The notes beneath the pieces are model-generated. The model was not told the origin of the DNA, made no database searches, and saw only the letters and a list, made by a program, of their open reading frames with translations. From positions 32,207 to 96,206 of the forward strand of contig JAXHUE010000002.1 in the NCBI GenBank assembly GCA_034189655.1: a DNA stretch of 64,000 nt, given 5' to 3'. Position numbers and translations under genes: made by a program. Below are positions 45,743 through 63,900 of the stretch, one piece after another. Position 1 is the first letter of the stretch. Each line of letters starts with the position of its first letter. The stretch is from Chloroflexota bacterium (GTDB taxonomy: Bacteria; Chloroflexota; Dehalococcoidia; E44-bin15).

Positions 45743-45769
45743 CACCTCTCCAGGGACGGGTTGATAGCG

Positions 45770-45810
45770 AGGCCGCCATCGGTGCACAGGCTACCTGCCG
45801 ATGGCGGCCT
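45770..45810. terminator. Bidirectional terminator hairpin (13-bp perfect stem) between the CoA-transferase pair and the nitroreductase
   Basis: AGGCCGCCATCGG-15 nt loop-CCGATGGCGGCCT, followed by TTCC. Confidence 0.6.
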
Positions 45811-45841
45811 TTCCATGCCTGCCTGGGGCTTTAAGCCCTCT

Positions 45842-46510: not shown

Positions 46511-46671
46511 GGCAGCACCTTTCCGAGCCCTTCATCGTCGGGCAAAAGATGTGCCCATGGTATCATCTCCGGGGAGGGCACGTCAACGCGGTGGTGGGGC
46601 GTGGGGGGGTGCTGGACAGTGCCCGGCCCGTGGCCTTATAGTGTCATCGATGCCAGACAAGGAGGGAGAGG

Positions 46672-47505
46672 ATGATCAGTGTTGCTGATGGGGTGTACGT
46701 GGAGACCTCGTTCCCCGGCGCCAACGTGGGCTGTGTAGTCACCGAGCAGGGGGTGGTAGTCATCGATACCCCCATGCTCCCTGAAGAGGCCGACACACTG
46801 CGCCGTGAGCTTGGGCGGCTGACCCAGAGGGAGGTCGCATACGTGGTCTACACCCACCAGCACTTCGACCACGTCATGGGCGCAGCCTACCTCACGCGGC
46901 GCGCCATCGCCTGCAGTGCCGCGGTGAGCGGCATTGCCCGCCTCAGGACCGGCCTTGAGAGCGAGCTCTCGCTCTTCTCGCCAGACCTCTATCGCGAGAG
47001 GAAGGAGATGTTCGATGGCCTGGACATCGTTCTCCCCCAGATAACATTCGACACCGAGCTGGGCATGCACATGGGCGATGCCGACCTCGCGCTGTCCTTC
47101 GTCGGCGGTCACTCCTCGGCCTCCATCATCATCCACGTGCCCCAGGCGCGGGTGCTGTTCGCCGGCGACAACGTGGTGACCGGGCAGCTCCCGGTTACCG
47201 CCAACGGCAGGTTCGGCCCGTGGATAGCGCTGCTTGAGCGCATCGAGGGGATGGAGCTGGACGTCATCGTCCCGGGACATGGTGAGGTGTGTGGAAAAGA
47301 CGGGGTGAGTGCCATACGCCGCTACTTCGAGGCGATGCGCGACCGGGTGCGGGAGATGGCTGGCGCCGGGGCGAGCAGGGAAGACGTGGCGCAGGGGATA
47401 GACCTGCGCGATTGCCTGCCTGTCCCCGTGAGCGAGGAGGCGACTGCGCAGGCCGCCTTCGACGCCGCTCGCATGTACGACCAGATGGCCAAGGGACTGC
47501 TGTAG
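46672..47505 (+). CDS. MBL-fold metallo-hydrolase
   Basis: YTHQHFDH (HxHxDH) motif. RBS AAGGAGGGAGAGG. Confidence 0.85.
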   Translation: MISVADGVYVETSFPGANVGCVVTEQGVVVIDTPMLPEEADTLRRELGRLTQREVAYVVYTHQHFDHVMGAAYLTRRAIACSAAVSGIARLRTGLESELSLFSPDLYRERKEMFDGLDIVLPQITFDTELGMHMGDADLALSFVGGHSSASIIIHVPQARVLFAGDNVVTGQLPVTANGRFGPWIALLERIEGMELDVIVPGHGEVCGKDGVSAIRRYFEAMRDRVREMAGAGASREDVAQGIDLRDCLPVPVSEEATAQAAFDAARMYDQMAKGLL

Positions 47506-47621
47506 GGTGCCCCCTGCTCTTCGTCCAGCCTGCGGCGGGTATTGACGTGGGTGGTGGCAGGGGATAAGATTAGCTACAGTATGCTCGAACGTTGCCCGCA
47601 GCAATTACGTACGTGCCCGCG

Positions 47622-50600
47622 ATGAGGTACTATCTTGGCATTGACGTCGGCTCGGTCGGCGCCAAGCTGGCCCTGGTCGACGAGGGATACTCCATAGTGA
47701 GGCTCGACGGCGAGAGGATAACCTCCAGCCCCACCGCTGCCGTCGCCTCGCTTATCTCCAGGCTGGGCCGCGATGTCGACCTCGGTGCAGTCGAGGCCGC
47801 CGGCTGCTCCGGCTCCGGGAGGGGAGTGATACCCGCGGACATGGGCTGGGCGGGGTACAGCAGCTCGCTCGCCGTCGCCTCCGGCCTCCTCCACCTCCAT
47901 CCCCAGGCCAGGACCGTCATCCAGATAGGCGGGCAGAGCTCCCTGGTGATAACGCTGGAGGACGGGCTCAAGAAGCCGTGGAAGGTGGCCTCGAACCCCC
48001 TCTGTGCCGCCGGCACCGGCAGGTTCCTGGAGCAGCAGGCCTATCGCCTGGACATCAGCATGGAGGACTTCTCCCGCCTGGCACAGGAGTACAAGGGCCA
48101 GGCGCCGCGGATAGCGGCCCGCTGCAGCGTGTTCGCCAAGACCGACCTCATCCATCTCCAGCAGAAGGGTGTGCCACTGGGGGCCATGCTCTGTGGCCTG
48201 TGCGACAGCATCGCCCGCGGCGTGGCCTCCTTGACCAGGGGCCCCCTGGAGGAGCCGATATATTTCGTAGGTGGGGTCGCCGCCAACGGCGCCATCGTGC
48301 AGGCCCTGGAGGAGGTGCTCTCGGCGAGGGGCGGCCACCGGGTGCAGGTGACCGTTCCCCGGGACTGCCGCCACGTAGAGGCCCTGGGCGCCGCCCTGCT
48401 GGCGCGGGGCTCGGGGAGGCGCTCCACCGTGGCCGCACTGCCCAGGTTGAGCGCCGGGCAGCGCTACTGGGAGCTGCCCCCGCTTGAGAGGCAGGACGGC
48501 CGGGAGGAGTGGCACCGGCCCGATCTATCGCCGCCGTTGGAGGGGTACCTGGGCGTCGATGTCGGCTCCACCAGCACTAAGGCCGTGGTCCTGGACCGCT
48601 CTGGGGGCGAGGTGCTGGCCAAGTGCTACCTCATGACGCAGGGGCGGCCCGTCGATGTCGTCAAGGAGGTGTGCCGCAACCTGCTCCGCGATGTGGGTGA
48701 GGGGGCACACATACTGGGGGTGGGCGTCACCGGCTCGGGCAGGTACCTGGTGGGCAGCTTCATCGGCGCCGACGTCATCAGGAACGAGATCACGGCACAG
48801 ACCAGGGCCGCCGCAGAGATCGACCCCGATGCCGATATCATCGAGATCGGCGGCCAGGACTCCAAGCTGGTCATCAAGAGGAACGGCGTCGTCGTCGACT
48901 ACCAGATGAACAAGGCGTGTGCCGCCGGCACCGGCAGCTTCATCGACGAGCTCGCCGAGCAGCTCGGCGTGTCGGTGAAGAACGGCGACTTCGCCCGGCT
49001 GGCCTTCGATGCCCCCTACACCATAGACCTGGGGTCGCGGTGCGCCGCCTTCATGGGACAGGCCGTGGCCGCGGCGCGGCAGGAGGGGGTCTCTATAGAG
49101 GTGATAGCGGCCAGCCTGGCCAACTCCATCGCCTCGAACTACCTCTCCAAGGTGGTGGGGATGAGGAGGCTGGGGGAGAGGGTGATACTCACCGGGGCGG
49201 TGTTCTATAACGACGCCGTGGTTTCCGCATTCACCCACGCGCTCGAGGGCAGGGAGACCGTCGTGCCCCGGCACAAGGAGGTGAGCGGTGCCATCGGTGC
49301 CGCCCTCCTCGCCAGGGAGGAGATGGTGGGGGGCGGCTCCCGGTTCAAGGGGTTCCGCGAGATAGTCGAGAGCGACTATACGCTGAAGACGTTTACCTGC
49401 AAGCGGTGCGAGAACAACTGCACCATAAGCCGGATGCAGATGCCCAACGAGCCGGCGACATACTACGGGAGCAGGTGCGACCGCTACGACGCCCGCTTCG
49501 ACCAGAAGAAGGTGGAGACCGCCTTTGACGAGCGGGAGAGGCTGCTCTTCGCCGGCGTGAGGGAGGCGACGGGCACCGGGCCCACCGTGGGCATCCCCAG
49601 GGCGCTCATCATATATGACTACGCCCCGCTCCTCATCGGCTTCTTGAGCGAGCTGGGGGCCAGGCCCGTCCTCTCGGGGCGGACCAACAAGCAGGTCATG
49701 GAGCAGGCCGTCGAGCTCAGCTACCCCGATAGCTGCTTCCCCGTGAAGCTGCTGCACGGGCACGTGGCCACCCTCGAAGAGGTCGACTACATCATGCACC
49801 CCTGCGCCATCAGGCTGGGCAGGAAGGAGGGGGATGAGAACCAGAAGTACTCCTGCCCGCTGGTGCAGGCGGCCCCCTTCATCGTGCGCCAGGCATTTGA
49901 CCTGGGGAAGAGGCTGCTGGTGCCTATCATCGACCTGAGCCGCGGCGACGACGATACCATAGAGAGCCTGGCCGACTGTGCCGTCGAGATGGGGTACCGC
50001 CGCCGAGAGGGCCGCCGGGCGGCCATCGCCGCCATGAGGCGACAGCGGGAGTTCGAGGCCAGCCTGGAAGAGCGGGGCAAGGCCCTCCTGGAGGAGCTCC
50101 ACCGCGGCGACAGGCTGGGCGTGGTGTTCCTGGCCCGCTCCTACATGTCGCAGGACTCAGGGGCCAACCTGGGCATCGCCGAGAAGCTGGCCCAGCTCGG
50201 CGTGGTGCCGATACCGCTCGACTTCCTCCCCCTGGCCCAGGTGGATGTCGGCGAGTACTCCGACCGCCCCTACTGGTACTACGAGGGCAAACACATCGCC
50301 GGTGCCGCCCTGGTCGCCCAGGACCCCCAGCTCTACGGGCTGGTGCTCACCAACTTCGGCTGCGGCCCCAACTCCTTCGTGCTCAACATCGTCGAGGACA
50401 TCATGGGGGGCAAGCCCCTGGGCCAGCTCGAGATAGACGAGGACGCCGCGGAGGCCGGCATCGTCACCCGCCTCGAGGCCTTCGTCGATACCATAAAGGG
50501 ATTTGCCTCCTCGGGCAGGTCGGAGCACGTCAGGGCGTGGGACCAGGGTGCCTATCGCTCGGCGCCCACGCTGGTGAACGCGAAGAAGCTGCTCTTGATA

Positions 50601-51770
50601 CCGCGGATGGCCCCCCACGCCGAGGTGCTGGGCGCGGCCATGGAGGCGTTCGGGGTGAGGGCCATGGTCATGCCCGAGTCCAGCGAGCAGTCCCTGCTCT
50701 ACAGCAACAAGGTCACCTCGGGGAGGGAGTGCCTGCCCTACCGCGTCACCCTGGGCGACTTCATCAGGTTCTTCAACGAGAATGGCGCAGACGGCATAGA
50801 CAGGGATGAGGTCGAGGGCTTCATGGCCAGCGCCTTCGGGCCGTGCCGCTTCGGCAAGTACGCCGTGGAGCAGAGGAGGGCCCTCGCCGAGATGGGGTAC
50901 AGCCTGCCCATGCGCACCACGGTATCCAACAATGCCTATCGGGACCTGGGCCTGGGCCCCGCCTTCGAGCGGCTGGCGTGGCGGGGGATCGTCGCCGTAG
51001 ACTACCTGGAGCGGCTCCTGTGGGGCACACGCCCCTACGAGCGGGTGCCGGGCCGTGCCGACGAGCTCTTCGGCGGCTACATGGCCAGGGTCGTTGGGTG
51101 TGTGCGCCGGCGGGAGGACATGGGCCCTGTCCTTAAGGAGGCCGCCAGGGAGTTCTGCGCGCTCAAGGACCCTGCGCTGCCCAGGAGGCCGCTGGTGGGA
51201 ATAAACGGCGAGATATTCCTGCGCGCCAACAAGTTCAGCAATAACGACCTGGTGGGGGAGTGCGAGCGTGCCGGCCTGGAGGTGGTGGTCTCCTCCATGG
51301 GGGAGTGGCTGCGCTACATCCAGCACCGCAACCTGGAGGACGGCTTACAAGACCACAAGGTGAAGAAGGTGGTCACAAGCTACATCAGGAACCTGATACT
51401 GGAGCGCGACGAGCGCTCTGTAGCCGTACACGTCGCGGGCTCCGTGGACGGCGAGGAGCCGTCCATCCACGAGATACTGTCACAGTGCAGCCGCTACCTC
51501 TCCCCGCGGTGCGGCAGCGAGGCAGTGCTCAGCATAGGGGTCGGCGTCGAGTGGATGGAGAGAGCGGACTTCGCCGGCGTCATATCGGTGATGCCGCACG
51601 GGTGCATGCCTGGCGGCATCGTAGCCGCCATGTCCGAGCGCCTGAGCGCCGCCTACCGCAAGCCGTGGATCACCCTCACCTACGACGGGTTCATGGAGAG
51701 CACCAACCCGGAGAGGGTCCACAACTTCGCTGAGGTGATACGGTTCTGCAGGGACGGGGCCTCTCTCTAG
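47622..51770 (+). CDS. Giant fused protein: two BadF/BadG/BcrA/BcrD (HgdC-like activase) ATPase domains plus C-terminal DUF2229/dehydratase-component-like domain
   Basis: About 1382 aa. Domain 1 YYLGIDVGSVGAKLALV...CAAGTGRF. Domain 2 YLGVDVGSTSTKAVVLD...CAAGTGSF (actin-fold ATPase motifs, duplicated). Cys cluster CKRCENNC...C, then an approximately 780-aa Cys-containing C-terminal region. Promoter TTGACG-17-TAAGAT at about 47538. Confidence 0.85.
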   Translation: MRYYLGIDVGSVGAKLALVDEGYSIVRLDGERITSSPTAAVASLISRLGRDVDLGAVEAAGCSGSGRGVIPADMGWAGYSSSLAVASGLLHLHPQARTVIQIGGQSSLVITLEDGLKKPWKVASNPLCAAGTGRFLEQQAYRLDISMEDFSRLAQEYKGQAPRIAARCSVFAKTDLIHLQQKGVPLGAMLCGLCDSIARGVASLTRGPLEEPIYFVGGVAANGAIVQALEEVLSARGGHRVQVTVPRDCRHVEALGAALLARGSGRRSTVAALPRLSAGQRYWELPPLERQDGREEWHRPDLSPPLEGYLGVDVGSTSTKAVVLDRSGGEVLAKCYLMTQGRPVDVVKEVCRNLLRDVGEGAHILGVGVTGSGRYLVGSFIGADVIRNEITAQTRAAAEIDPDADIIEIGGQDSKLVIKRNGVVVDYQMNKACAAGTGSFIDELAEQLGVSVKNGDFARLAFDAPYTIDLGSRCAAFMGQAVAAARQEGVSIEVIAASLANSIASNYLSKVVGMRRLGERVILTGAVFYNDAVVSAFTHALEGRETVVPRHKEVSGAIGAALLAREEMVGGGSRFKGFREIVESDYTLKTFTCKRCENNCTISRMQMPNEPATYYGSRCDRYDARFDQKKVETAFDERERLLFAGVREATGTGPTVGIPRALIIYDYAPLLIGFLSELGARPVLSGRTNKQVMEQAVELSYPDSCFPVKLLHGHVATLEEVDYIMHPCAIRLGRKEGDENQKYSCPLVQAAPFIVRQAFDLGKRLLVPIIDLSRGDDDTIESLADCAVEMGYRRREGRRAAIAAMRRQREFEASLEERGKALLEELHRGDRLGVVFLARSYMSQDSGANLGIAEKLAQLGVVPIPLDFLPLAQVDVGEYSDRPYWYYEGKHIAGAALVAQDPQLYGLVLTNFGCGPNSFVLNIVEDIMGGKPLGQLEIDEDAAEAGIVTRLEAFVDTIKGFASSGRSEHVRAWDQGAYRSAPTLVNAKKLLLIPRMAPHAEVLGAAMEAFGVRAMVMPESSEQSLLYSNKVTSGRECLPYRVTLGDFIRFFNENGADGIDRDEVEGFMASAFGPCRFGKYAVEQRRALAEMGYSLPMRTTVSNNAYRDLGLGPAFERLAWRGIVAVDYLERLLWGTRPYERVPGRADELFGGYMARVVGCVRRREDMGPVLKEAAREFCALKDPALPRRPLVGINGEIFLRANKFSNNDLVGECERAGLEVVVSSMGEWLRYIQHRNLEDGLQDHKVKKVVTSYIRNLILERDERSVAVHVAGSVDGEEPSIHEILSQCSRYLSPRCGSEAVLSIGVGVEWMERADFAGVISVMPHGCMPGGIVAAMSERLSAAYRKPWITLTYDGFMESTNPERVHNFAEVIRFCRDGASL

Positions 51771-51780
51771 CGCCGCGCGC

Positions 51781-53220
51781 CTACGTGTCCACGCGAACGC
51801 AGTTCCGGCCCTCCTCCTTGGCCCGGTAGAGGGCCTCGTCGGCGGTCTTGATGAGCTCGGTCTCGTTTCCGGTGTCCTCTCTGAGCGTGGACACGCCCAG
51901 GCTCACGGTGACCTGTACGGTGTTGCCTTCGCAGGGGAACGGGTGGCCCTCCACGATCTCGCGCAGCCTCTCGGCGATGTTGACTGCCTCGTCTGAGTCG
52001 GTGCCGGGCAGGAGTATGGCGAACTCCTCGCCGCCGTACCTGGCCACCGTGTCCTCTCTGCGCACGTAGTCCATCAGGACCTTCGACAGCTCCGCGAGCA
52101 CGGCATCTCCTTGAAGGTGACCGTAGGTATCGTTTATCCTCTTGAAGCGGTCGATGTCCACCATGATGCAGGAGAGGGGGCTGCTGTGTCGCCGGGCCCG
52201 CGAGAACTCTTCCTCGATGCGGGCATAGAAGTAGCGGTGGTTGAAGGCCCCGGTGAGCCCGTCGGTGATGGCCGACCTCCGTTCCAGTGCGTAGAGACGG
52301 GCATTGTCCAGGATGGAAGGAGTCCTGCTGACGAAGATCTCAAGCGTACCCTGGTCGTCGCTGCCCAGGGGGCTGCCACCGCCCTTGTCGATGGCGATGA
52401 TGCCGAGCATCCTGCCCTTGGTCTCCAGGGGCACTATCTCCAGGTGGCCATGCTCACCGCCCTGGACATCGGGGTGGAAGGTCTCGTCGAGCCCGATGAC
52501 CCTCACCGACAGGTTATCGGTGTCGACATCGATGTTGCGCCGGCGCAGCTCCTGGAGCAGGCTGGAGACGAAGGCAGAGGCCGCCACCTTTTCGGTGGAG
52601 CCGTGGAGCGTCAGGGTATCGGTGTGGATGACGAGGAGGCCTGCCATCTCGAAATCGAGGACGCGGCCCATGAGGCTGAGTATGGCCTCGGCGAGGGCGT
52701 TGTCGTCCTCGATACGTGCCACCTCGTCGAGGTCGTTGCGTATCGTCGCCTCCTTCAGCTTCTTGTCGAGGAGGGCACTCACCTTGGTCACCACCGCGGT
52801 GTCGTCGCCCCCGGCCTTCACGTCGACGTAGCGGGACTGCGGTGTTCCCGCGTTTCTGTCCAGGAGGGCCCTTATCTTGTCCATCAGCTCGCGGTGGTCG
52901 AAGGGCTTGGTGAGGTAATCGTCGGCGCCGGTCTTGGCCCCCCAGTACTGGTCGCCCTTGCCGGCGAGCGCGGTGAGCATAAGTATCGGTATGTGGGCCG
53001 TGCGCTCGTCGTTCTTTATCAGCCGGCATGCCTGGTAGCCGTCGAGGCCGGGCATTATCACATCCATGATGATGAGGTCTGGCACATGGTCAAAGGTCTG
53101 GTGTACTGCCTGGATGCCGTCGAAGGCGGTGATGACGTCGTAGCCGCTGGCCTCCAGCCTGCGCTGGATCAGCCTCACGTTCACCTCGCTGTCGTCGACG
53201 ACCAGTATCTTATCTGGCAT
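51781..53220 (-). CDS. Response regulator: REC domain, middle (GAF-like) domain and GGDEF diguanylate cyclase domain
   Basis: ILVVDDSEVN...DVIMPGLDG phospho-acceptor region, RYGGEEF active-site motif. 479 aa. Confidence 0.9.
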   Translation of the reverse strand: MPDKILVVDDSEVNVRLIQRRLEASGYDVITAFDGIQAVHQTFDHVPDLIIMDVIMPGLDGYQACRLIKNDERTAHIPILMLTALAGKGDQYWGAKTGADDYLTKPFDHRELMDKIRALLDRNAGTPQSRYVDVKAGGDDTAVVTKVSALLDKKLKEATIRNDLDEVARIEDDNALAEAILSLMGRVLDFEMAGLLVIHTDTLTLHGSTEKVAASAFVSSLLQELRRRNIDVDTDNLSVRVIGLDETFHPDVQGGEHGHLEIVPLETKGRMLGIIAIDKGGGSPLGSDDQGTLEIFVSRTPSILDNARLYALERRSAITDGLTGAFNHRYFYARIEEEFSRARRHSSPLSCIMVDIDRFKRINDTYGHLQGDAVLAELSKVLMDYVRREDTVARYGGEEFAILLPGTDSDEAVNIAERLREIVEGHPFPCEGNTVQVTVSLGVSTLREDTGNETELIKTADEALYRAKEEGRNCVRVDT

Positions 53221-53340
53221 ATGCTCTCCCCCTCGTCACTCTTGACCTGATGGGTCCATTTTACTTGACAGAACGATGACAATATTATACCATGCCGCTG
53301 TAGAATAATAACACAGGCGTCGTAAAAACCCCAAGAGACA

Positions 53341-53430
53341 CGAAAAAGGCAAACCCTGGGAAATCAGGGGACGCAAAGCTGCGAGTCTACGGCGAAAAAG
53401 GTGCTATGACGGTCGGGCTGCCGAAACTAA
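53341..53430 (+). promoter_or_regulatory. Candidate c-di-GMP-I (GEMM) riboswitch aptamer in the 5' leader of the hybrid kinase gene
   Basis: AAGGCAAACC-CUGG-GAAA-UCAG-GGGACGCAAAGCU matches the Vc2 aptamer core GGGCAAACC-AUUC-GAAA-GAGU-GGGACGCAAAGCC with identical spacing (complementary 4-bp stems around a GAAA tetraloop). The 3' half is a CGGCG...UGCCG-closed helix containing CUAUGA (tetraloop-receptor-like). I could not fold P1 by eye. Confidence 0.6.
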
Positions 53431-53437
53431 AACAGGT

Positions 53438-53480
53438 GAGCCCTCTCAGGGTAGTACTGGGGAGGGCTTCTCGCATTTTA
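53438..53480 (+). terminator. Intrinsic terminator-like hairpin (putative riboswitch expression platform) before the kinase start codon
   Basis: GAGCCCUC...GAGGGCUUC 7-bp stem followed by UCGCAUUUUA. 20 nt upstream of the ATG at 53501. Confidence 0.5.
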
Positions 53481-53500
53481 CTGCAGGGGGGTCGGTAATA

Positions 53501-56500
53501 ATGAAGAGAGGGGATGTGAGCAAGCAGGACCAGGGAGTTGAGGGCAGGAAGAGGGAGGCAAAGCGGGAGGAGGAGGTCCCGGAAGAGGGGCTTCTGGAGC
53601 GGGTTGAGAGCAGTGCCGAGGAGCTCGAGCGCTCGGAAGAGCGATACCGGGAACTTGTAGAGAACATAAACGACGGCTATCTGGTGGTGAGGGGGCGAAA
53701 GGTCGTTTTCGCCAACAGGCGGTGCGCCGACCTCCTGGGATACCCGGTGAGGCAGATCGTAGGGAAGAACTTCGCAGACCTCGTAGCCGAGGAGTCGCGT
53801 GAGGGGGCGGCAGAACTCTACAAGAGGAGCATGAGCGGGGAGCGACTGTCAGAGCGCCGTGAGGCCTTATTACGGCGAAAAGACGGTACAAAAGTACCGG
53901 TCGAAATGACCCTAAAGGACATCACCTATGATGGCAGGCCCGCTGTCTCTGCCATGTTCTGTGATATCACGGAGAGAAAGGGAGTGGAGCGTGAGCTGTG
54001 GCGGAGGACGTTTGAGCTCGGCGAGCGAGTCAAGGAGCTGAACTGCCTCTACAGCCTCTCCAATCTGGTGCAGCGGCGGGATATAGCGCTCGCTGAAGTA
54101 TTTCAGGGCGCGGTCGAGCTCGTCCCCCCGACATTGCAGTACCCTGATGTGGCGTGTGCCCGGCTGCTCATCGAGGGCCAGGAGTACAGGACGGGCAACT
54201 TCGTCGATACCGAATGGAGGATAAGCTGCGATGTCACTGTGCATGGCGAAGTCATAGGGAAACTGGACGTCTGTTACGCAGAAGAGGTACAGAAGAGCTA
54301 CGGGGGCGTATTCCTTCCAGAGGAGAGGGCACTGCTCCATGCCGTCTGCGGGCGGCTGGGTGAGACCATAGAGAGACGGCGGGCGGAGGGGGAGATTAGG
54401 GCCTCGAAGGAGAAGTACCGCCACCTGCTCGAGGAGATACACGATGGCTACCTGGTGGTACAGGGGGGAAGGGTGGTCTTCGCCAACACGCGCCTGGGGG
54501 AGATACTGGGCTACGGCCCTGAGGCGCTGGGGCGTCCCGTCAATGAGTTCATGCCAGAGTATCTACTGGGCCGGGCGACCGAGCTACGGGAGAGGGTGGT
54601 AAGCGGCGAGGACATATCAGAGCCCATGGAGACCACGGTGCTCACCAAGGACGGCGCCGAGCTGCCCATAGAGGTCAGTATTAAGACGACAGAGTACGAG
54701 GGGAAGCTGGCCATCGCTGTGCTGGTGAGGGACATCTCCGAGCGCAGGCGCGCCGAGGAGATGCGCAGGCGCGAGGAGGAGAAGTACCGCTACCTGTACG
54801 AGTATCAGCCTGCGGTGAACTTCATTATTGGCAATGATGGGACACTGGTGGACATCAATCAGGCGGGCCTGTCCACGTTTGGCTATACGAAGGATGAGCT
54901 CGTGGGCAGGGGTGTCCTCGACCATGTCGTCCCCGAGGAAAGGGAGCGCGTGGCACAGCAGATGGCCAGGGCATTCCAGGGTGAACACACGCCGGGGCTG
55001 GACGTGGATATCTACGCCAGTGACGGCTCGGTCCACACCATGTGGTTCTCACCGGGCCACGTGATCCCGGCGGATGGGGCGCAGCAGGCCATCATGCTCG
55101 CCACCGGTGTCGACGTCACCGAGCGTAAAATGGCGGAGGAGGAGCGCAGGCGCGCGGAGGAGAGGTACCGCCAGCTCCTGGAGGACATAGACGACGGCTA
55201 CTTCGTGGTCCAGGACGGAAAGATAGTCTTTGCCAACACCAGGTGCACCGAGATCCTGGGCTACGGGCCGGAGGCCATTGGGGAGTCTGTGGCCACCTTC
55301 GTGCCGCCGGGACAGGAGCATCACATAGCCGCCTTCGGGGAGGCCTTCTCCGGAGAGGGTGAGGTGGCGCTGCACGACGAGATGTCGGTGCTCACCAAGG
55401 ATGGCAGCGAGGTCCCGGTGGAGATACACGCCAGGAGGGCGCTGTACATGGGTCGGCCCGCCCTCACCGTCGTCATCAGGGACATCTCGGAGCGCGCGCG
55501 CGCGGAGCGGGAGCTCAAGGCATCGGAGCAGAGGTACAAGGCGCTCCTGGAGGACATAAACGACGGTTACTTCGTGGTCCAGGACGGCGTGATAGTGTTC
55601 GGCAACGGGCGGCTGGCCGAGATGTTCGGATATTCGCTCGATGAGGTGCTGGGCAGCCGGCTCGTCGACATTGCGCTGGACAGCGCAAAGGATATGGTGG
55701 CGCTCATGATGTTCGCCTTCGAGCAGGGAGGGGCCGTCCCGGAGCGCGTGGAGATTACCGGGACCGATCCCAGGGGGGGCGGCGATATCACCATAGAGAT
55801 AAGGATGAGCGTCATCGACTACCTGGGACGGCCGGCCATAAACGGCATCATCAGGGACATTACCGACCGCAAGCGCGTTGAGATGGCGCTTCAGGCGGAG
55901 AAGGCCTACTCCCAGTCGCTGGTGCACAGCCTGCCCGATATGCTGCTCACCATAGACCCTGAGGGCAAGATAAGCTATGCCAACGATGTGATGGTGGTCT
56001 TCACTGGCGTAGAGCTGGAGCAGCTCGTGGGGAGGCCCCTGGGGCAGGTACTGCAGGAGATAAATATCCTGGACGCCCGGACGGCCACCCTCGTTACCAG
56101 GCGCATGAAGAAACGGTTGAAGACAGGCCTGCCGGCGCGGGGCGTAGAGCTGGAGATGAGAAATGCCAGGGGTGAGTGGGTGAAAGGCCTGTACTCGACC
56201 TCTGTGATAAAGTCCCCCAGCGGCGAGATCCTGGGGCAGGTGGTGGTCATCAGTGACATCACCGACCGCGTGAAGGCAGAAGAGGAGCTCAAGCGGTCGG
56301 AGGAGAAGTACCGCAGGCTGGTGGAGGACATAAACGACGGCTACTTCGTGCTCCGCGATACCACCATCCTCTTTGCCAACGAGAGGATGGCGGAGATGAT
56401 GGGCTACGGCCTCGATGAGATCGTCGGGGAGGAGTTCCTCAGGTTCCTCGCACCAGAGGCGATAGAAGTGCCCACGCAGGTACACCAGAGGAGCATGGCC

Positions 56501-59443
56501 GGCGATGCCGTAGCCGGGCGCTACGAGACCGTGGTCGTCCGCAAGGACGGGTCCAGGATGGAGATAGACTTCAGCTTGAAAGACATTACCTTTGAAGGCA
56601 GGCCGGCGGTCTCCATCGTGGCCCGGGACATCACAGAGCGCAAGCGTGCGGAGAAGGAGCTCAAGGCATCCGAGGAGAAGTATAGGGAGCTAGTAGAGAA
56701 CATCAACGATGCCTATGCCGTGGTGCGGCGCGAGAACCTGGTGTACGTGAACAAGCGCTGTGAGGACATATTCGGCTATACGGCTGGCGAGATGGTGGGC
56801 CGGAGCTTCTTCGAGATGCTGGCGCCAGAGGTGGTAGAGCAGAACCTAAAGATACTGGCGGCGAGCCTCGACGGTGGCGACCTGCCCGACCACTACGAGA
56901 CCACTGCCATAACGAAGAGCGGCCAGAGGGTAGAGATAGACGTGAGCATACACCCTATCACGTACGAGGGGAGGCCTGCCTTCTCGGTGATGGCCCGGGA
57001 TGTGAGCGACCGCAAGCGGGCCGAGGATGAGCTCAAGCAGTCGGAGGACAAGTTCCGGCACCTGGTGAACGATATGCTCGACGGCTATGTCGTGTTGCAG
57101 GATGGCACCATCAGGTTCGTCAATGCGGCGCTGGCACAGATGAGTGGCTACTCGAGCGAGGAGCTGGTGGGCCGGAGATACGACGACCTGCTTGCCGTCG
57201 ATACCTCCCCGCTGGCCAAGGACATACGCCGCAGGGTTGCCGAGGGTGTGGAGGTCATGGAGCGGTTCCGGGGCGAGATCATAAGGGAGGACGGCACCGT
57301 GCTCCCCGTGGAGGCCGGTATCAAGGGCGTAGAGTATGAAGGACGTACCGCGGTGTCGGTCGTGGTGAGGGACATCACGGAGCGCAAGCGGGCAGAGGCC
57401 GAGATAGAGCGCCGCAACCGGGAGCTGGCCGTCTTGAACGAGGTGGCCCAGGTGGTGAGCCAGTCACTGGACATAGAGAAGATACTGAGCGACACCATGG
57501 ACCTGGTGATGGACTTCATGGAGACGGAGGCGGGCTGGATAGCGCTGGTGGACAGGGACAGCAACCGCTTTCTGCCGCTGGTGAAGAGGGGGGTGCCGCC
57601 GGAGATCCTCGCCATCATGCCAGACATCACCCCCGATATGGGGCTGGCCAGCCACGCCATCAGGACGGGCCAGCCGGTGGCACTCAACGACATTCGCCAG
57701 AATAGCATAGATGAGCTCGCTAAGCCGGCGCGTCCTCTCATGGGAAAGGTAGAGTTCAAGGCGCTGGCGCACGTGCCCATAGACTCAAAGGGAGATATAA
57801 TTGCCGTCATGACACTGGGCAGCCGCACCAAGCCGTCGTTCAGTGAAGGGGAGCTGGGCCTGCTCGGCTCCATCTGCCATGAGATCGGCGTCGCCATAGA
57901 GAATGCCCGCCTCTATGACGAGATAAGGGCGAAGGCCCAGGAGCTGGAGAAGGCCAACCGGCACAAGTCTGAGTTCATGGCCAGCATGTCCCACGAGCTG
58001 CGCACGCCGTTGAACTCCATCATCGGCTTCTCCGAGCTCATGCTCGATGGCATAACCGGAGACATAAACGATGAGCAGCAGCAGTGCCTGGAGGACATCT
58101 TGACCAGCGGTAAACAGCTCCTCATCCTCATCAACGGTGTCCTCGATATCTCGAAGATAGAGGCCGGCAAGCTGGAGGTCATGCCGGAGGTCTTCGACAT
58201 CGGGGAAGTGTTCGATGAAGCGCGGAGGACGATGTCGCCACTGGTGGAGGAGAAGGTGCAGACCCTCACCATGCACATCGAAGAGGGCATGCCCCCGATG
58301 TACGCCGATAAGGGGAAGATAAAGCAGGTGCTTTTGAACCTGCTCAGCAACGCCGTCCGCTACACCAATGACGGAGGCTCCATCGCGGCCGAGGCCAGGA
58401 GGGAGGGTGACCTCTGCCGCATATCGGTCGCCGATACCGGGATAGGCATCAGGGAAAAGGACCTGGAGAACGTCTTCCAGGCCTTCACGCAAGTAGGGGA
58501 ATCGCCGCTGAAGAAGGAGGGAGGTACCGGGCTGGGGCTTGCCATCGCCAAGCAGTTCGTAGAGATAAACGGCGGCATGATATGGGTCGAGAGCGAGTAC
58601 GGCAAGGGGAGCACCTTCATCTTTACCGTGCCCATCTATCGGGCGGATATGAAGCACAGTGAAGCGAAGAGGGAGGAGATGGTGCCCACCGCTGCCGAGG
58701 GTGGCGAGAGGTGCATCATGGTGGTGGACGACGACCGCGGGGCCAGGTCGCTCATGAGGCGCTGGCTGGAGGCAGAGGGGTATAGCGTGTGCGAGGTGTC
58801 GCAGGGCGCGGAAGCTGTGGAGACGGCCAAGAGAATTCGGCCCGCGGTGGTCACGCTGGATATAATGATGCCCGGCGAGGATGGGTGGACTGTGCTGCGA
58901 AGCCTAAAGACCACCAATGAGACGCAGGATATACCGGTAGTCATCGCATCCATGGTGGAGAACAGGGAGCTGGGCTTCGCGCTGGGGGCGGTGGACTATT
59001 TCGTGAAACCGGTGGAGAAGGAGCGCTTCCTTAAGAGGCTGACTGAGCTGGGCATAGGGAAGAGAGAGCGCGTGCTGGTGGTCGATGACGAGCCCAGAGA
59101 CGTACGCCTGACATCTGCCATCCTGGAATCGGAGGGGATGGAGGTGCTCAAGGCCTACGGGGGAAAGGATGGCCTGAAGCTTGCCAGGGAGAGACAGCCC
59201 AGCCTGATAGTGCTGGACCTCCTCATGCCCGACATGGACGGCTTCGAGGTGGTGCGGCACTTGCGGGAGGACGAGAGCACACAGGACATCCCCATAGCCA
59301 TCGTGACCATGAAGGAGCTCTCCGCCGAGGAAGAGGCAGAGCTTGCGAGCCAGGTGCAGTCCGTGATGCAAAAGGCTTCCTTCGATAGGAATGCCTTCAT
59401 CGCTGAGATAAGACGTATCGAGGGGCCACCGAGAGGGGGATAG
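53501..59443 (+). CDS. Hybrid sensor histidine kinase: about 10 tandem PAS domains, GAF, HisKA, HATPase_c and two C-terminal receiver domains
   Basis: 1980 aa. Repeated PAS linker motif ERKRAEEELKxSEEKYRxLVExINDGY. HisKA H-box SHELRTPLNSIIGFSEL. G-box GTGLGLAI. Two REC domains (VVDDD...D...K). Confidence 0.9.
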   Translation: MKRGDVSKQDQGVEGRKREAKREEEVPEEGLLERVESSAEELERSEERYRELVENINDGYLVVRGRKVVFANRRCADLLGYPVRQIVGKNFADLVAEESREGAAELYKRSMSGERLSERREALLRRKDGTKVPVEMTLKDITYDGRPAVSAMFCDITERKGVERELWRRTFELGERVKELNCLYSLSNLVQRRDIALAEVFQGAVELVPPTLQYPDVACARLLIEGQEYRTGNFVDTEWRISCDVTVHGEVIGKLDVCYAEEVQKSYGGVFLPEERALLHAVCGRLGETIERRRAEGEIRASKEKYRHLLEEIHDGYLVVQGGRVVFANTRLGEILGYGPEALGRPVNEFMPEYLLGRATELRERVVSGEDISEPMETTVLTKDGAELPIEVSIKTTEYEGKLAIAVLVRDISERRRAEEMRRREEEKYRYLYEYQPAVNFIIGNDGTLVDINQAGLSTFGYTKDELVGRGVLDHVVPEERERVAQQMARAFQGEHTPGLDVDIYASDGSVHTMWFSPGHVIPADGAQQAIMLATGVDVTERKMAEEERRRAEERYRQLLEDIDDGYFVVQDGKIVFANTRCTEILGYGPEAIGESVATFVPPGQEHHIAAFGEAFSGEGEVALHDEMSVLTKDGSEVPVEIHARRALYMGRPALTVVIRDISERARAERELKASEQRYKALLEDINDGYFVVQDGVIVFGNGRLAEMFGYSLDEVLGSRLVDIALDSAKDMVALMMFAFEQGGAVPERVEITGTDPRGGGDITIEIRMSVIDYLGRPAINGIIRDITDRKRVEMALQAEKAYSQSLVHSLPDMLLTIDPEGKISYANDVMVVFTGVELEQLVGRPLGQVLQEINILDARTATLVTRRMKKRLKTGLPARGVELEMRNARGEWVKGLYSTSVIKSPSGEILGQVVVISDITDRVKAEEELKRSEEKYRRLVEDINDGYFVLRDTTILFANERMAEMMGYGLDEIVGEEFLRFLAPEAIEVPTQVHQRSMAGDAVAGRYETVVVRKDGSRMEIDFSLKDITFEGRPAVSIVARDITERKRAEKELKASEEKYRELVENINDAYAVVRRENLVYVNKRCEDIFGYTAGEMVGRSFFEMLAPEVVEQNLKILAASLDGGDLPDHYETTAITKSGQRVEIDVSIHPITYEGRPAFSVMARDVSDRKRAEDELKQSEDKFRHLVNDMLDGYVVLQDGTIRFVNAALAQMSGYSSEELVGRRYDDLLAVDTSPLAKDIRRRVAEGVEVMERFRGEIIREDGTVLPVEAGIKGVEYEGRTAVSVVVRDITERKRAEAEIERRNRELAVLNEVAQVVSQSLDIEKILSDTMDLVMDFMETEAGWIALVDRDSNRFLPLVKRGVPPEILAIMPDITPDMGLASHAIRTGQPVALNDIRQNSIDELAKPARPLMGKVEFKALAHVPIDSKGDIIAVMTLGSRTKPSFSEGELGLLGSICHEIGVAIENARLYDEIRAKAQELEKANRHKSEFMASMSHELRTPLNSIIGFSELMLDGITGDINDEQQQCLEDILTSGKQLLILINGVLDISKIEAGKLEVMPEVFDIGEVFDEARRTMSPLVEEKVQTLTMHIEEGMPPMYADKGKIKQVLLNLLSNAVRYTNDGGSIAAEARREGDLCRISVADTGIGIREKDLENVFQAFTQVGESPLKKEGGTGLGLAIAKQFVEINGGMIWVESEYGKGSTFIFTVPIYRADMKHSEAKREEMVPTAAEGGERCIMVVDDDRGARSLMRRWLEAEGYSVCEVSQGAEAVETAKRIRPAVVTLDIMMPGEDGWTVLRSLKTTNETQDIPVVIASMVENRELGFALGAVDYFVKPVEKERFLKRLTELGIGKRERVLVVDDEPRDVRLTSAILESEGMEVLKAYGGKDGLKLARERQPSLIVLDLLMPDMDGFEVVRHLREDESTQDIPIAIVTMKELSAEEEAELASQVQSVMQKASFDRNAFIAEIRRIEGPPRGG
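53630..57420 (+). repeat. Array of about 9-10 diverged tandem direct repeats (about 375-390 nt each) encoding the PAS modules
   Basis: Recurrent DNA blocks such as GAGGAGAAGTACCGC...CTGGAGGACATAAACGACGGCTACTTCGTG at 55.15, 55.53, 56.29, 56.67 and 57.05 kb. Confidence 0.6.
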
Positions 59444-59448
59444 ACTTT

Positions 59449-59835
59449 GTGGTGGAGGGACACGGTGTGAAGAAGACTATTCTGGTGGTGGAGGATAACC
59501 CCAAGAACATGAGACTTATGAGGATGATCTTGAGTGCAAACGGCTATGACGTGCTGGAGGCAACCGACGGCGAGGAGGGGCTGAAGATGGCCCAGGAGGG
59601 GAGGCCTGATCTCATCGTACTTGATATTCAGCTCCCCAAGATGGAGGGCACCGAGGTCGCAAAGCGGCTCAGGGCCATGCCGGAGTTCGACGGCATTCCC
59701 CTGATAGCGCTCACCGCCTATGCCATGAAAGGCGACCAGGAACGGATACTGGAGGCCGGTTTCGATAGCTACATGTCGAAGCCGATAGACACCCGCGAGT
59801 TACCCTCTCTAGTAGCGCAGATGCTCTCGCGGTAG
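59449..59835 (+). CDS. Single-domain CheY-like response regulator
   Basis: ILVVEDNPKN...DLIVLDIQLP...K receiver motifs. 128 aa. GTG start 6 nt after the kinase stop. Confidence 0.85.
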   Translation: MVEGHGVKKTILVVEDNPKNMRLMRMILSANGYDVLEATDGEEGLKMAQEGRPDLIVLDIQLPKMEGTEVAKRLRAMPEFDGIPLIALTAYAMKGDQERILEAGFDSYMSKPIDTRELPSLVAQMLSR

Positions 59836-59869: not shown

Positions 59870-61099
59870 TCATTCCAGCATATGCTCCAGTATGTAGCGG
59901 TCGATGTCCTCCTCTGGTATCCCCAGCAGGTCTCTCAGTATCTCATCGTTGTGCTCGCCGAGCATGGGTGCAGACTTGTGGGTACTGCCCGGCGTGCGCG
60001 ATAGCTTTATGGTGACGCTGTCGTAGGTGGTGCGGCCGGCCTCAGCGTGGTCGAGGCGGACGTAGTGCTCCCTGGCCTTGATGTGGGGGTCATGGACCAG
60101 CAGGTCTTGGGAGGTCTGCACCACGCCAGCGGCGACACCCCCCATCTGCATCAGCATCATCACCTCCTCTGCCGTCCTCTCCGCGGTCCACTCTGCCACC
60201 AGCCGGTCCAGCTCCTCCTCGTTGGCCTTGCGGCCCAGGTGGGTGGCGAACCGCTCTTCCCTGGTCCAGGATGGGTTGCCGATGACGTTGCAGAAGGCCT
60301 GCCACTCCCCGTCGCTTGCGACGGCGATGGCGCACCAGCGGTCGTCTCCCTTGCAGGGGTAGGTGGAGTGGGGGGCGGCGTGGGGCACGCGGTTGCCCTG
60401 GCGGGTCTGCACCCTCCCGTTTACGGTGTAGTCCAGGACGGCGCTGTCCAGCGTGGCCACGGTGGACTCGTACTGGGACACCTCGATGAGCTGTCCCTTG
60501 CCCGTCTTGCGCCGGTGGCGCAGCGCCGAGACCATGGCCAGTACGGTGTGGTACGGGTTGGGGGCATAGTCCGGGTAGTTCACACCGGTGCCGATGGGGA
60601 TGCGGTCGGGGTAGCCTGAGAGATAGGTGAACCCGGTGAGCGACTGGAGCGCCACCCCGAAGCCCACGTAGTCGCGGTGCGGCCCCCACAGCCCCCACAT
60701 CGGCATCCTGACCATGATGATATCGGGCTTTACCTTCGCCACCTCTTCATAGGAGAGTCCCCAGTCCTCCATCACGTGGGGGACGAAGTTCTCGATGACG
60801 ATGTCGCTCACCTTGATGAGCCGCCTGGCTACCTCCCGCGCCTCGGCGAAGTTCATGTTCAAGGCGATGCCCTTCTTCCCGCTGTTCAAGTTGTTGGCCC
60901 AGCCGCCCACGTTGACCCCGGCCTTATCGGGCACGGTGGGCGCGGCCAGCCGCAGCGCATCGATGTGGGCAACGGACTCTATCTTGATCACCTCGGCGCC
61001 GAACTCGGCGAGGACGCGGGTGGGGATGGTGCCCGCCGCGTACCAGGTGAAGTCACATACCCTGATCCCCTCGAAGGGAAGTCTTGTCTTCCGCTCCAT
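59870..61099 (-). CDS. Family III CoA-transferase (CaiB/BaiF), subunit 2 of second tandem pair
   Basis: IRVCDFTWYAAGTIPTRVLAEFGAEVIKIE. Start at MERKTRL (ATG 61099); the track ORF has a 43-codon extension. Confidence 0.85.
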   Translation of the reverse strand: MERKTRLPFEGIRVCDFTWYAAGTIPTRVLAEFGAEVIKIESVAHIDALRLAAPTVPDKAGVNVGGWANNLNSGKKGIALNMNFAEAREVARRLIKVSDIVIENFVPHVMEDWGLSYEEVAKVKPDIIMVRMPMWGLWGPHRDYVGFGVALQSLTGFTYLSGYPDRIPIGTGVNYPDYAPNPYHTVLAMVSALRHRRKTGKGQLIEVSQYESTVATLDSAVLDYTVNGRVQTRQGNRVPHAAPHSTYPCKGDDRWCAIAVASDGEWQAFCNVIGNPSWTREERFATHLGRKANEEELDRLVAEWTAERTAEEVMMLMQMGGVAAGVVQTSQDLLVHDPHIKAREHYVRLDHAEAGRTTYDSVTIKLSRTPGSTHKSAPMLGEHNDEILRDLLGIPEEDIDRYILEHMLE

Positions 61100-61110
61100 G
61101 ACGACCTCCT

Positions 61111-62397
61111 TTATATGATGCCCCGTGAGGTGAGCAGCTCGAGCTCCTGGCGAGAGAGGCCCAGCTCCTTGTGGTATACGTCCAGGTTGTGCTCGCCCAC
61201 CAGGGGTGGTCTCCCCTTTACCTGCCATGGGGTCTCTGAGAGCCTGTAGGGAGGCCCGGCGTACTTTATGGTCACGCCCAGCTCGGGGTGGTCCACCTCG
61301 ACGAAGTAGTCGCGGTCATTCAGGTGAGGGTCGTTGACCAGGCCCGCCGGGTCGCTCACCGGGGCGCATATGAAGTGCTGGCGCTGCCCCTCCTCGTAGA
61401 GCTCGGCCACGGGGTGTGCCGCCAGGAACCTCTTGAACACCTGGTCCAGGTGTTCCATGCGCATCATCCGCTCCAGGAAGGCGTCGGTGCCGATTAAGCT
61501 CATCATGGCGGTGCGGTCGCCCACAGACTTGATGAAGTCTTGCCACTCCTCGTTCATGAGGTCTTCGGCCATGCCCTTGGAGTCCATCCACTTCACCACG
61601 TTTTCCCAGTCGATGAGGAGCAGCCACAGCATGTAGCCGTCCTTGCACTGGTAGACGTCCCTCCCCGGGACGCGGATGCCCAGTCCCCCTACCGGCGTCC
61701 CGCCGAAGCCCCAGCGCTTCCTGATCTCATTGCGCAGGTCGTAGAACTGCATCGCCGTCTCCATGGCGATGGTGGTGCACTCCTGCCGCGAGATGTCGAT
61801 GGCCTGCCCCTCGCCGCTCACGTCCCGCTCGAAGAGGGCGATGGAGATGCCGGCGGCGCCGTGGAGGGAGCCCATGTAGTGTGACTGGTAGCCGTACGTG
61901 CGGTAGGGTGCCGCATCGGGAAAGCCCCCCAGGTACATGAGACCGCCCATGGCCACGACGACGATGTCCGGGGCCTTGAAGTCGCGGAAGGGGCCGCTCT
62001 GTCCGAAGCCGCTTACGGAGCAGAAGATGAGCCCCTGGTTTATCTCCTTCAAGACGTCGTATCCCAGGCCCATCTTCGCCATGTGCCCCGGGGGGAAGCT
62101 CTCCACCAGGACATCGGCGCCCTCCACCAGCCGCTTCAAGAGCGCGCGGCCGTCTGCGGTATCGAGGTTCAGCGTGATCCCGCGCTTGCTCCGGTTCAAG
62201 GCGAAGAAGTGAAGGCTCCGCTCCGGGCCGGGGATATCGTGCACGAATGGCCCCATGCCCCGTGATAGGTCACCGCCTGGGGGCTCCACCTTGATCACGT
62301 CGGCGCCCAGCTCGGCGAGGAGCTGGCTGGTGTAGGCGCCGACGTCATCGGCGAGGTCGAGCACCCTGATGTCGCCCAGAAGTGTCTCCTGTAGCAC
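61111..62397 (-). CDS. Family III CoA-transferase (CaiB/BaiF), subunit 1 of second tandem pair
   Basis: IRVLDLADDVGAYTSQLLAELGADVIKVE. 428 aa. 11-nt spacer to the downstream paralog. Confidence 0.9.
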   Translation of the reverse strand: MLQETLLGDIRVLDLADDVGAYTSQLLAELGADVIKVEPPGGDLSRGMGPFVHDIPGPERSLHFFALNRSKRGITLNLDTADGRALLKRLVEGADVLVESFPPGHMAKMGLGYDVLKEINQGLIFCSVSGFGQSGPFRDFKAPDIVVVAMGGLMYLGGFPDAAPYRTYGYQSHYMGSLHGAAGISIALFERDVSGEGQAIDISRQECTTIAMETAMQFYDLRNEIRKRWGFGGTPVGGLGIRVPGRDVYQCKDGYMLWLLLIDWENVVKWMDSKGMAEDLMNEEWQDFIKSVGDRTAMMSLIGTDAFLERMMRMEHLDQVFKRFLAAHPVAELYEEGQRQHFICAPVSDPAGLVNDPHLNDRDYFVEVDHPELGVTIKYAGPPYRLSETPWQVKGRPPLVGEHNLDVYHKELGLSRQELELLTSRGII

Positions 62398-62832: not shown

Positions 62833-63900
62833 ATGACAGTATCAGGCAACATTCCCCGCGGCCGGGAGGTCGTACTCCAAGGTGGCGAGAGGTTCGGCCT
62901 GCCACTCCTTGAGGTGGGCAGGGCTCTCGTGTCGCTGGCCGATGTTCAAAGCCTGCTCATGCTCACCATAGCGAAGGCCGTAGAGGGCATAGAATCGGCT
63001 GACGCTGGACTGATCTGCCTCTACGATAACACACAGGGCAAGCTTATGGTGAAGGCCGCCTTCGGCTACGGCCAGGAGGTCTGGAATATATCGGCCAACC
63101 CGGAGAGGGGCGGCGCTCCAGGGATGGTGTATAAGACTCGCCGCAGCAGGATATGGTCGTCGCCCGAAGAGGTCAGCGGGCTGATAGCCAGCCTGGACAC
63201 CTGGGACCAGCAGCACCTCACAAGGGCGCGGAGGAGGCTCCCGCGTCCCACCAGCGTGGTGTGCAGCCCTCTTATGGCCAAGGACAGGTTCATCGGGTGT
63301 ATTCACCTGGAACACTACACCAACCCTGCCCCGTTTTCCATGTGCGACCTCGCACTGCTGCACTCGTTCGCAGAGCAGGTATCACTTGCCGTAGAAAACG
63401 CCATGCTCTTCAAGGAAATGCAGCGCAAAGAGACGACGTGGTCCGAGCTGCTCTACTGGCTGCTCATCGCCCGGGAGTACGAGCGAAGGCGTATCATGTC
63501 GGTGCTGGAGGACGATGTCAACCAGGTGCTGGAGGTCCTGGACGCAGAGCTGGAGGTCCCGGAGAGTGAGCTGAAAGGCCTGGCCGGGCAGCACCAGGGC
63601 ATGAGGGCGATGCGGGACAACCTGTATAAGATAGTGGACGAGATGCATAGCCTGTCACCGAGCACGAGGGTTGTGCCTCTGGGTGGAGAGGAGGAGAGCT
63701 ACGATGGTCTCACCTCAAGGGAGAAGCAGATAATCCGGCTGGTGGCGGAGGGGAGGACCAACAAAGAGATCGCCGACCTTCTGTGCATAAGTATAAGGAC
63801 CGTGCAGTCCCACCGCGCCAACATAATGGAAAAGCTCGAGATGCATGACCGCACTGAACTGGTGCGCTATGCCATTCGTAAGGGCCTTGTCACCCCTTAG
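62833..63900 (+). CDS. GAF-domain plus LuxR-type HTH transcriptional regulator
   Basis: N-terminal GAF-like region. C-terminal LTSREKQIIRLVAEGRTNKEIADLLCISIRTVQSHRANIMEKL is the LuxR/FixJ HTH signature. Confidence 0.85.
   Translation: MTVSGNIPRGREVVLQGGERFGLPLLEVGRALVSLADVQSLLMLTIAKAVEGIESADAGLICLYDNTQGKLMVKAAFGYGQEVWNISANPERGGAPGMVYKTRRSRIWSSPEEVSGLIASLDTWDQQHLTRARRRLPRPTSVVCSPLMAKDRFIGCIHLEHYTNPAPFSMCDLALLHSFAEQVSLAVENAMLFKEMQRKETTWSELLYWLLIAREYERRRIMSVLEDDVNQVLEVLDAELEVPESELKGLAGQHQGMRAMRDNLYKIVDEMHSLSPSTRVVPLGGEEESYDGLTSREKQIIRLVAEGRTNKEIADLLCISIRTVQSHRANIMEKLEMHDRTELVRYAIRKGLVTP

Follow-up and report, generated by a model that had tools for sequence, protein, structure and literature searches.

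Can the second messenger cyclic di-GMP (c-di-GMP) set the abundance of a sensor kinase, and might that kinase in turn act on an enzyme that makes c-di-GMP? This question is raised by a signalling locus within a 64,000-nucleotide (nt) stretch of DNA from an uncultured Chloroflexota bacterium (positions 32,207 to 96,206 of contig JAXHUE010000002.1, GenBank assembly GCA_034189655.1), the whole of which is referred to here as the window. The locus comprises a gene for a large hybrid histidine kinase with many PAS domains, a candidate riboswitch in its 5' leader, a gene for a stand-alone receiver immediately downstream and, in the opposite orientation, a gene for a receiver (REC)-GGDEF protein. A first-pass annotation of these genes had proposed that c-di-GMP made by the phosphorylated REC-GGDEF protein would feed back on kinase expression if the riboswitch was real. 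Our analyses indicated that a c-di-GMP-responsive leader probably governs a two-gene operon consisting of the multi-input kinase and a dedicated single-domain receiver. The feedback idea was found to be plausible but unsupported.

The leader, the kinase and the stand-alone receiver

Covariance-model searches of the 64-kb window with 4,227 Rfam families identified an aptamer within the 280-nt divergent control region between the cyclase and kinase genes. The aptamer scored 69.1 bits against RF03167 (gathering score 59, E 2.9e-14), and a second family of clan CL00126 (RF01051 / RF03167) was also above its own threshold at this site. A GAAA tetraloop (53360-53363) caps a 6-bp stem in one arm, and the sequence GUCUA...UAUGAC in the other arm was judged by eye to be receptor-like. 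In the Vc2 aptamer, the contacts to the ligand are made by G20, A47 and C92 (PMC5888326, PMC11218506). The model alignment, read together with the sequence, placed G53348, A53375 and C53421 at the respective equivalent positions, with G53348 being the residue 5' of the closing pair of the first arm and C53421 lying in the junction before P1. The aptamer is therefore predicted to be of the class-I (GEMM-I) c-di-GMP type with a canonical G20/A47/C92 pocket, and its predicted ligand is c-di-GMP.

The score, the canonical contacts, the promoter upstream and the kinase ATG (53501) downstream confirmed the riboswitch that the first-pass annotation had only suspected in the kinase leader. Its description of a divergent REC-GGDEF gene with an intact RYGGEEF motif was likewise upheld, as Pfam assigned both Response_reg and GGDEF to the product. 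Transcription from the sigma-70-like promoter, near 53293, would give a leader of about 200 nt. Two sigma-70-like sites were found in the 500-nt region, versus 0.2 expected, and near-consensus TTGACA/TATAAT promoters were about threefold enriched in the whole window (31 versus approximately 9.5 expected).

The kinase has the domain order PAS1, mini-GAF, PAS2 to PAS9, GAF, HisKA, HATPase_c, REC, REC. All the hallmarks of a hybrid histidine kinase were present: the H-box SHELRTP (His1498), the N box, and the G1 (DTGIG) and G2 (GGTGLGL) boxes were intact, and each fused receiver had its acceptor aspartate, in TLDIMMPG (amino acid, aa, 1787) and VLDLLMPD (aa 1906), with the DD...D...T/S...K residues kept. 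No transmembrane segment was detected in the kinase (maximum Kyte-Doolittle value 1.31) and the protein is therefore considered cytoplasmic. The PAS repeats, GAF domain and two receivers of the first-pass annotation were all recovered in the Pfam run, but the number of PAS stretches was nine, by Pfam and by TIGR00229 alike, and not ten. Nor can this number be called extraordinary, as had been claimed, since 6,514 relatives were found at E<=1e-30, many of them 2,000-3,400 aa in length. Seven of the PAS units belong to one subfamily with the motif INDGY(F/L)VV and pairwise identities of 31-48%; PAS3 and PAS6 are divergent.

DNA self-similarity within the PAS array did not exceed 79%, over stretches of up to 177 nt, which argues that the duplications are old and not an artefact of assembly. 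Such an artefact was ruled out by this divergence, by an independent metagenome scaffold (L017) that is 99.5% identical to the window on both sides of two 100-N gaps, and by the mostly synonymous differences between the two strains, which in the kinase open reading frame (ORF) number 28 synonymous and 12 non-synonymous. Judged from its coding sequence, the kinase gene is real and under purifying selection. The two gaps of L017 (4741-4840 and 7834-7933) correspond to window positions ~58561-58816 and 55288-55567, inside the kinase gene, and gene callers split the kinase on this scaffold into fragments accompanied by spurious antisense ORFs. As a consequence of these gaps and split calls, the full-length kinase is missing from protein databases. 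No orthologue of the kinase was found in 185,579 species genomes, in which the best match was 37% identical.

Residues 165-300, between PAS1 and PAS2, were rejected as a tenth PAS domain. They matched no PAS model and no Pfam or NCBIfam family even at E<=10, and their fold is that of a small GAF domain: the AlphaFold2 model was confident (pLDDT 92.6) and its top Foldseek matches were GAF domains (3p01, 4g3k and 8jrc; TM 0.6-0.73). The domain, which we refer to as mini-GAF, has the motifs ERxKELxC, IPPAWQ(F/Y)PE and FLxEE, and was present at full length in 25 of the 120 kinase relatives listed. A profile built on it identified 11,305 cluster representatives, of which 4,668 had E<=1e-30, and a single protein can carry as many as five copies. 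Mini-GAF seems to represent a large, as yet undescribed domain family found in multi-PAS signalling proteins.

The second gene of the operon encodes a receiver-only protein in which the signature D, T and K residues are intact. Its start is most likely GTG 59467, which lies 7 nt after the Shine-Dalgarno sequence (SD) GGAGGG (59454-59459), gives a product of 122 aa and is the start called on the sister scaffold L017; the alternative GTG 59449 would give 128 aa. With the start at GTG 59467, the gap after the kinase stop is about 23 nt rather than the 6 nt noted in the first reading, which had correctly recognized a single-domain receiver. The accompanying suggestion of a phosphorelay was not supported, as scanning of the kinase and of the ORFs from 38 to 64 kb revealed no Hpt domain, and a classical His-Asp-His-Asp relay is therefore not evident. 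One related kinase, that of L024, has an adjoining Hpt gene.

Comparison with related loci indicated which parts of this arrangement recur. In L023, an unrelated metagenome contig, the same aptamer (67 bits) lies 80 nt before the gene for a hybrid multi-PAS-GAF kinase of 2,455 aa, and a gene for a 128-aa receiver comes next; L022 has a kinase followed by a 122-aa receiver. The transmitter core of the window kinase is approximately 46% identical to the cores of both, and the stand-alone receiver of the window shares 43% identity with those that follow these two kinases. The loci differ in their PAS arrays, and not all of them have the riboswitch. As compared across these sequences, the conserved unit is the kinase core with its fused receivers plus the stand-alone receiver.

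Several observations weigh against the proposed control of the operon by a c-di-GMP riboswitch. Among the related kinase loci scanned, only the window and L023 had a riboswitch directly 5' of the kinase; none was found in the scanned loci of L022, L145 and L147, and the multi-PAS kinase of L146 (2,549 aa) is encoded inside an operon that has no riboswitch directly upstream. Within the window aptamer itself, the modelled P1 is only 2-3 bp. In an operon neighbouring that of the L146 kinase, an aptamer of the same class (63.2 bits; 890-976, minus strand) precedes a gene for an FHA-domain protein and one for a REC-HisKA-HATPase kinase.

The operon in L023 (5830-16537) continues with genes for a REC-ParA/MinD-type ATPase and an MshEN-T2SSE (PilB-like) ATPase. 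MshEN is a c-di-GMP-binding module. There are hints from these genes that the L023 cassette controls a pilus or secretion machine.

Table 1. Features of the signalling locus, with positions counted from the first nucleotide of the window.
Feature	Position	Strand	Basis or remarks
REC–GAF-like–GGDEF diguanylate cyclase gene	51781-53220	-	479 aa; ORF and Pfam
Sigma-70-like promoter, TTGACA-17-TACCAT	53265-53293	+	10/12 consensus matches; would drive the riboswitch–kinase transcript
c-di-GMP-I-clan aptamer	53339-53426	+	Rfam covariance model
Candidate anti-hairpin (anti-terminator) pairing	53415-53444	+	Minimum free energy (MFE) structures of truncated transcripts
Stable, terminator-like hairpin of the expression platform	53439-53468	+	Folds; homologous hairpin in L023
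Kinase ribosome-binding site, GGGGGG	53486-53491	+	9 nt 5' of ATG 53501; sequence reading
Soluble hybrid histidine kinase gene	53501-59443	+	1980 aa; Pfam and NCBIfam domains
Sensor array, aa 45-1304	53633-57412	+	Nine PAS units, ~124 aa each
Compact GAF-like domain (mini-GAF), aa 165-300	53993-54400	+	~130 aa; AlphaFold and Foldseek
Canonical GAF domain, aa 1323-1467	57467-57901	+	Pfam GAF_2 E 2.3e-18, GAF E 3.1e-13
Transmitter core	57965-58636	+	Pfam HisKA E 1.2e-19, HATPase_c E 3.6e-27
Two C-terminal receiver domains	58712-59383	+	Pfam Response_reg, two stretches, E 2.1e-42
Stand-alone receiver gene	59467-59835	+	122 aa; Pfam Response_reg E 7e-29; ORF 59449-59835

The signalling module is surrounded by an acyl-CoA metabolism island (42131-51770 and 59870-62397) that includes genes for four family-III CoA-transferases, an enoyl-CoA hydratase and a 1,392-aa fused BadF/BcrA-type activase with DUF2229. 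A gene for a GAF–LuxR regulator is present at 62833-63900. The GyrA encoded in the window is 72% identical to the GyrA of Dehalococcoidia metagenome-assembled genomes, which places the host among the uncultured Chloroflexota.

The neighbouring cyclase and the proposed feedback loop

The product of the divergent gene was matched by Pfam to Response_reg (E 3.6e-26) and GGDEF (E 2.5e-50), with a middle domain that was weakly GAF-like (GAF_3, E ~1e-4 to 8e-4). The acceptor aspartate is in IIMDVIMPG (aa 53) and the active site, GGEEF (aa 396-400), is preceded by an I-site, RRED (aa 387-390), in the arrangement RRED-TVARY-GGEEF. An RxxD inhibitory site five residues before GG(D/E)EF is the spacing of PleD. 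The guanine-specifying aspartate is in RINDTYGHLQGD (GHLQGD). An aspartate at this base-recognition position is found in GTP-specific diguanylate cyclases, with serine being the residue of the cyclic GMP-AMP (cGAMP)-making Hypr enzymes (PMC6456294). Based on these residues, the protein is credibly a competent, GTP-specific and product-inhibited diguanylate cyclase.

If the kinase phosphorylates this cyclase, c-di-GMP would be subject to negative feedback. In its closed form, the kinase would phosphorylate both the stand-alone receiver and the cyclase, and the c-di-GMP produced would shut off kinase synthesis via the riboswitch. A second messenger would then set the abundance of its own upstream sensor, with the riboswitch–kinase–receiver cassette being common to at least two uncultured lineages. 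We consider it doubtful that the cyclase is a second substrate of the kinase, and the closed loop as a whole is unlikely. The loop need not close through the neighbouring cyclase, since any diguanylate cyclase of the cell would feed the riboswitch.

It is more probable that the cyclase is simply a neighbour. The targets of the kinase would then be limited to its fused receivers and the co-transcribed stand-alone one, or would be a distant regulator, and the riboswitch would read a global c-di-GMP pool supplied by other cyclases. This explanation is consistent with the homologues of the cyclase (35-41% identity), which are widespread and occur in unrelated contexts, namely after a PAS kinase (L018), in a che operon (L019) and alone (L020). 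It is also consistent with the L023 and L022 cassettes, neither of which has a REC-GGDEF gene adjoining it, and with the conserved pair being the kinase and the stand-alone receiver. A partnership between kinase and cyclase was weakly favoured by three observations. Within the annotated 38-64 kb of the window, no further kinase gene lies in the vicinity of the cyclase, the REC domain of the cyclase is 38-41% identical to the stand-alone receivers versus 31% to the first REC of the kinase, and the L018 kinase, whose core shares 45% identity with that of the window kinase, is co-operonic with a REC-GGDEF homologue. The 280-nt control region that the two divergent genes have in common also speaks against their being mere neighbours. 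The link between kinase and cyclase is nevertheless thin, consisting of adjacency, the 38% REC identity to the stand-alone receiver and the one other locus, and this counts against the loop.

Direction of the switch and identity of the ligand

The hairpin of the expression platform, with arms AGCCCUCUC and GGGAGGGCU, starts 13 nt past the aptamer and was seen in all folds. Downstream of it are UCUCGCAUUUU and, further on, the SD GGGGGG. The homologous hairpin of L023 (GAGCACCCUUCGG/CCGAGGGGUGCUC) has changed base pairs, and the SD before the kinase ATG, AGGGGGG, is the same. An alternative anti-hairpin pairing was also found, in which the aptamer 3' strand GGGCUGCC (53415-53422) pairs with GGU-G-AGCCC (53435-53444) through 8 bp and a bulge. 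This pairing appeared in the MFE structures of window transcripts ending at 53448 and 53459, and in L023 the truncated-transcript fold paired GGUUGCC with GGCAAUC.

These structures are consistent with an OFF switch, to which we give a slightly better than even chance. With c-di-GMP bound, the aptamer 3' strand would be locked, the hairpin would form and transcription would stop or be attenuated; without ligand, the 3' strand would pair with the 5' arm of the hairpin and transcription would read through. As the SD was masked in neither state, the hairpin most plausibly acts on transcription, and sequestration of the SD by the C-rich hairpin arm was set aside. Pairing of the hairpin loop GGUAGU with the aptamer sequence GCUGCC as a pseudoknot, suggested by one compensatory change relative to L023, was also rejected, as forcing it cost approximately 9 kcal/mol (-44.5 versus -53.4) and only two sequences were available. 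Canonical U-tailed terminators were identified at the same offset in the leaders of six sibling aptamers from a metagenome scan (L058, L084, L049, L085, L068 and L026). An anti-terminator of 12 bp, built in the same way, is present in L058, and the aptamers of L058 and L023 are nearly identical. The mean duplex z over 25 sibling leaders (-0.87) suggests a clade-wide tendency towards an anti-hairpin.

The leader of the window supplied several points that speak against such a ligand-dependent terminator. The anti-hairpin duplex (-13.8 kcal/mol) was not better than shuffles (z -0.8), and the hairpin formed alike in the free MFE and the aptamer-constrained fold, giving no clear thermodynamic switch. 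The tail UCUCGCAUUUU is a poor U-tract, the L023 tail has no U-tract, and a terminator scan did not call the hairpin. Moreover, only two leaders linked to this kinase type, those of the window and L023, were at hand. The weak tail is not decisive either way, since terminators were only weakly enriched in the genome (31 hairpin-plus-U-tract terminators in the window versus approximately 18.6 expected).

The same observations can be read in favour of an ON switch, in which c-di-GMP would raise expression of the kinase–receiver operon. A hairpin that has no proper U-tract and is stable with or without the aptamer constraint may not be a terminator that responds to the ligand; taken by itself, the complementarity behind the window anti-hairpin was not significant; and c-di-GMP-I riboswitches of both signs are known. 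We regard an ON switch as unlikely, however, based on three features. The hairpin is self-contained, with neither arm taken from the aptamer, although an ON design would require such reuse; both the SD and the 3' arm of the hairpin are rich in G, and no alternative structure that would sequester the SD is apparent; and the siblings with canonical terminators show the OFF architecture. Were the switch ON, and were the kinase to activate the neighbouring cyclase, the outcome would be positive feedback or bistability. The remainder of our expectation, after the OFF and ON designs, falls to other or no regulation.

With respect to the ligand, RF03167, the top-scoring Rfam family at the site, is labelled “c-di-GMP-I-GGC”. 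In the work of Weinberg et al. 2017, “GGC” reportedly means a G at the A47-equivalent position, and it is so taken here together with the printed consensus; this variant has reportedly been put forward as possibly sensing another ligand. The RF03167 consensus has a conserved G (model position 37) immediately 3' of the closing pair of the first arm, GACGCGAAGC, at which position the window reads GACGCAAAGC, with A53375 and not G. The metagenome scan for sibling aptamers used a search pattern that permitted A or G here, and an A was found in all 84 of the 84 readable siblings, as well as in L023. Among siblings carrying this same A, Rfam labelled some as RF01051 (84-86 bits) and others as RF03167 (63-78 bits). 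Seven of the ten siblings checked from the scan, plus the window, L023 and L146, were labelled RF03167 despite a canonical A47, which we attribute to score and clan competition between related models and not to the nucleotide at position 47.

The genes 3' of 58 sibling aptamers were typical c-di-GMP targets, including genes for subtilases, fn3/Ig surface proteins, pilins, FlgM, a methyl-accepting chemotaxis protein, a GGDEF protein and an HD-GYP-type protein; a histidine kinase was the first gene after the leader in none of the 58 sampled. With an A in place of the variant-defining G in the window and every sibling, labels that follow score competition, classic c-di-GMP target genes downstream, and a G at position 20 versus the A of cGAMP-binding aptamers, we rejected as very improbable the idea, based on the 69.1-bit match, that this is a true orphan c-di-GMP-I-GGC aptamer sensing another ligand, to which the neighbouring cyclase would be irrelevant. 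The pocket is thus read as canonical, with c-di-GMP as its predicted ligand. A more general caution is that the Rfam label alone over-calls the variant and should not be taken to mean “unknown ligand”.

Tandem aptamer pairs, approximately 230 nt apart, were also observed among the siblings (L031, 9192-9504; L062, 10208-10471, minus strand; L072, 5834-6146). The pair precedes the same 597-aa ORF in L031 and L062, and a 640-aa ORF in L072.

Comparison with known systems

A single literature text search for c-di-GMP riboswitches in Chloroflexi returned little. In the DivJ/PleC–DivK–PleD system of Caulobacter, histidine kinases, a single-domain receiver and a receiver-fused diguanylate cyclase, PleD (REC-REC-GGDEF), operate without a riboswitch. 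The parts list of the window is similar. The window cyclase differs from PleD in its REC–GAF-like–GGDEF architecture and in scoring 311 bits against the NCBIfam equivalog NF007135 (cut-off 474), and the stand-alone receiver of the window scored 70.7 bits against a DivK-like model (cut-off 160).

The kinase resembles the giant multi-PAS “PAS domain S-box” kinases of Chloroflexota, methanogens and others, which have long tandem PAS arrays, interspersed GAF domains and a HisKA-HATPase-REC tail; mini-GAF, too, is found in many of them. Identity to the window kinase is at most 39% and confined to the C-terminal core, so that no close orthologue exists among them.

With the RF03167 family, the window aptamer shares a short CACG/CGAAG-type P1 and the AAAGGCAAACC junction, but it has an A rather than a G at position 47. 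It has the same three-helix aptamer, GAAA tetraloop and G20/A47/C92 equivalents as the GEMM-I riboswitches (RF01051) Vc2 of Vibrio cholerae and Bc1 of Bacillus thuringiensis, and likewise has a hairpin after the aptamer. Repression by Bc1 reportedly makes use of intrinsic terminators (PMC11218506). In contrast to these examples, the first gene downstream in the window encodes a hybrid histidine kinase, the hairpin has a poor U-tract and the host is an uncultured Dehalococcoidia-like member of the Chloroflexota.

The Geobacter system of GacA, a Hypr REC-GGDEF enzyme, and GEMM-Ib is alike in that the product of a receiver-fused GGDEF protein is read by a GEMM-I-type riboswitch (PMC6456294). The window enzyme differs in having the GHLQGD aspartate with GGEEF, a combination specific to diguanylate cyclases (PMC6456294), and a GAF-like domain between REC and GGDEF, and the window aptamer has G and not A at position 20.

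None of the components of the locus is of a new kind. What stands out is the gene set that the riboswitch precedes, namely an operon for a two-component sensor. This was seen in the window and in L023, and the riboswitch is also present at one further kinase-containing operon, that of L146. If our assignment is correct, a c-di-GMP switch here and in one unrelated contig controls the two-component sensor itself. With the riboswitch ahead of the kinase, c-di-GMP would act before a phosphorylation pathway, whereas the kinase usually comes first and the cyclase second, and the locus is a compact place in which such a feedback loop could be examined.

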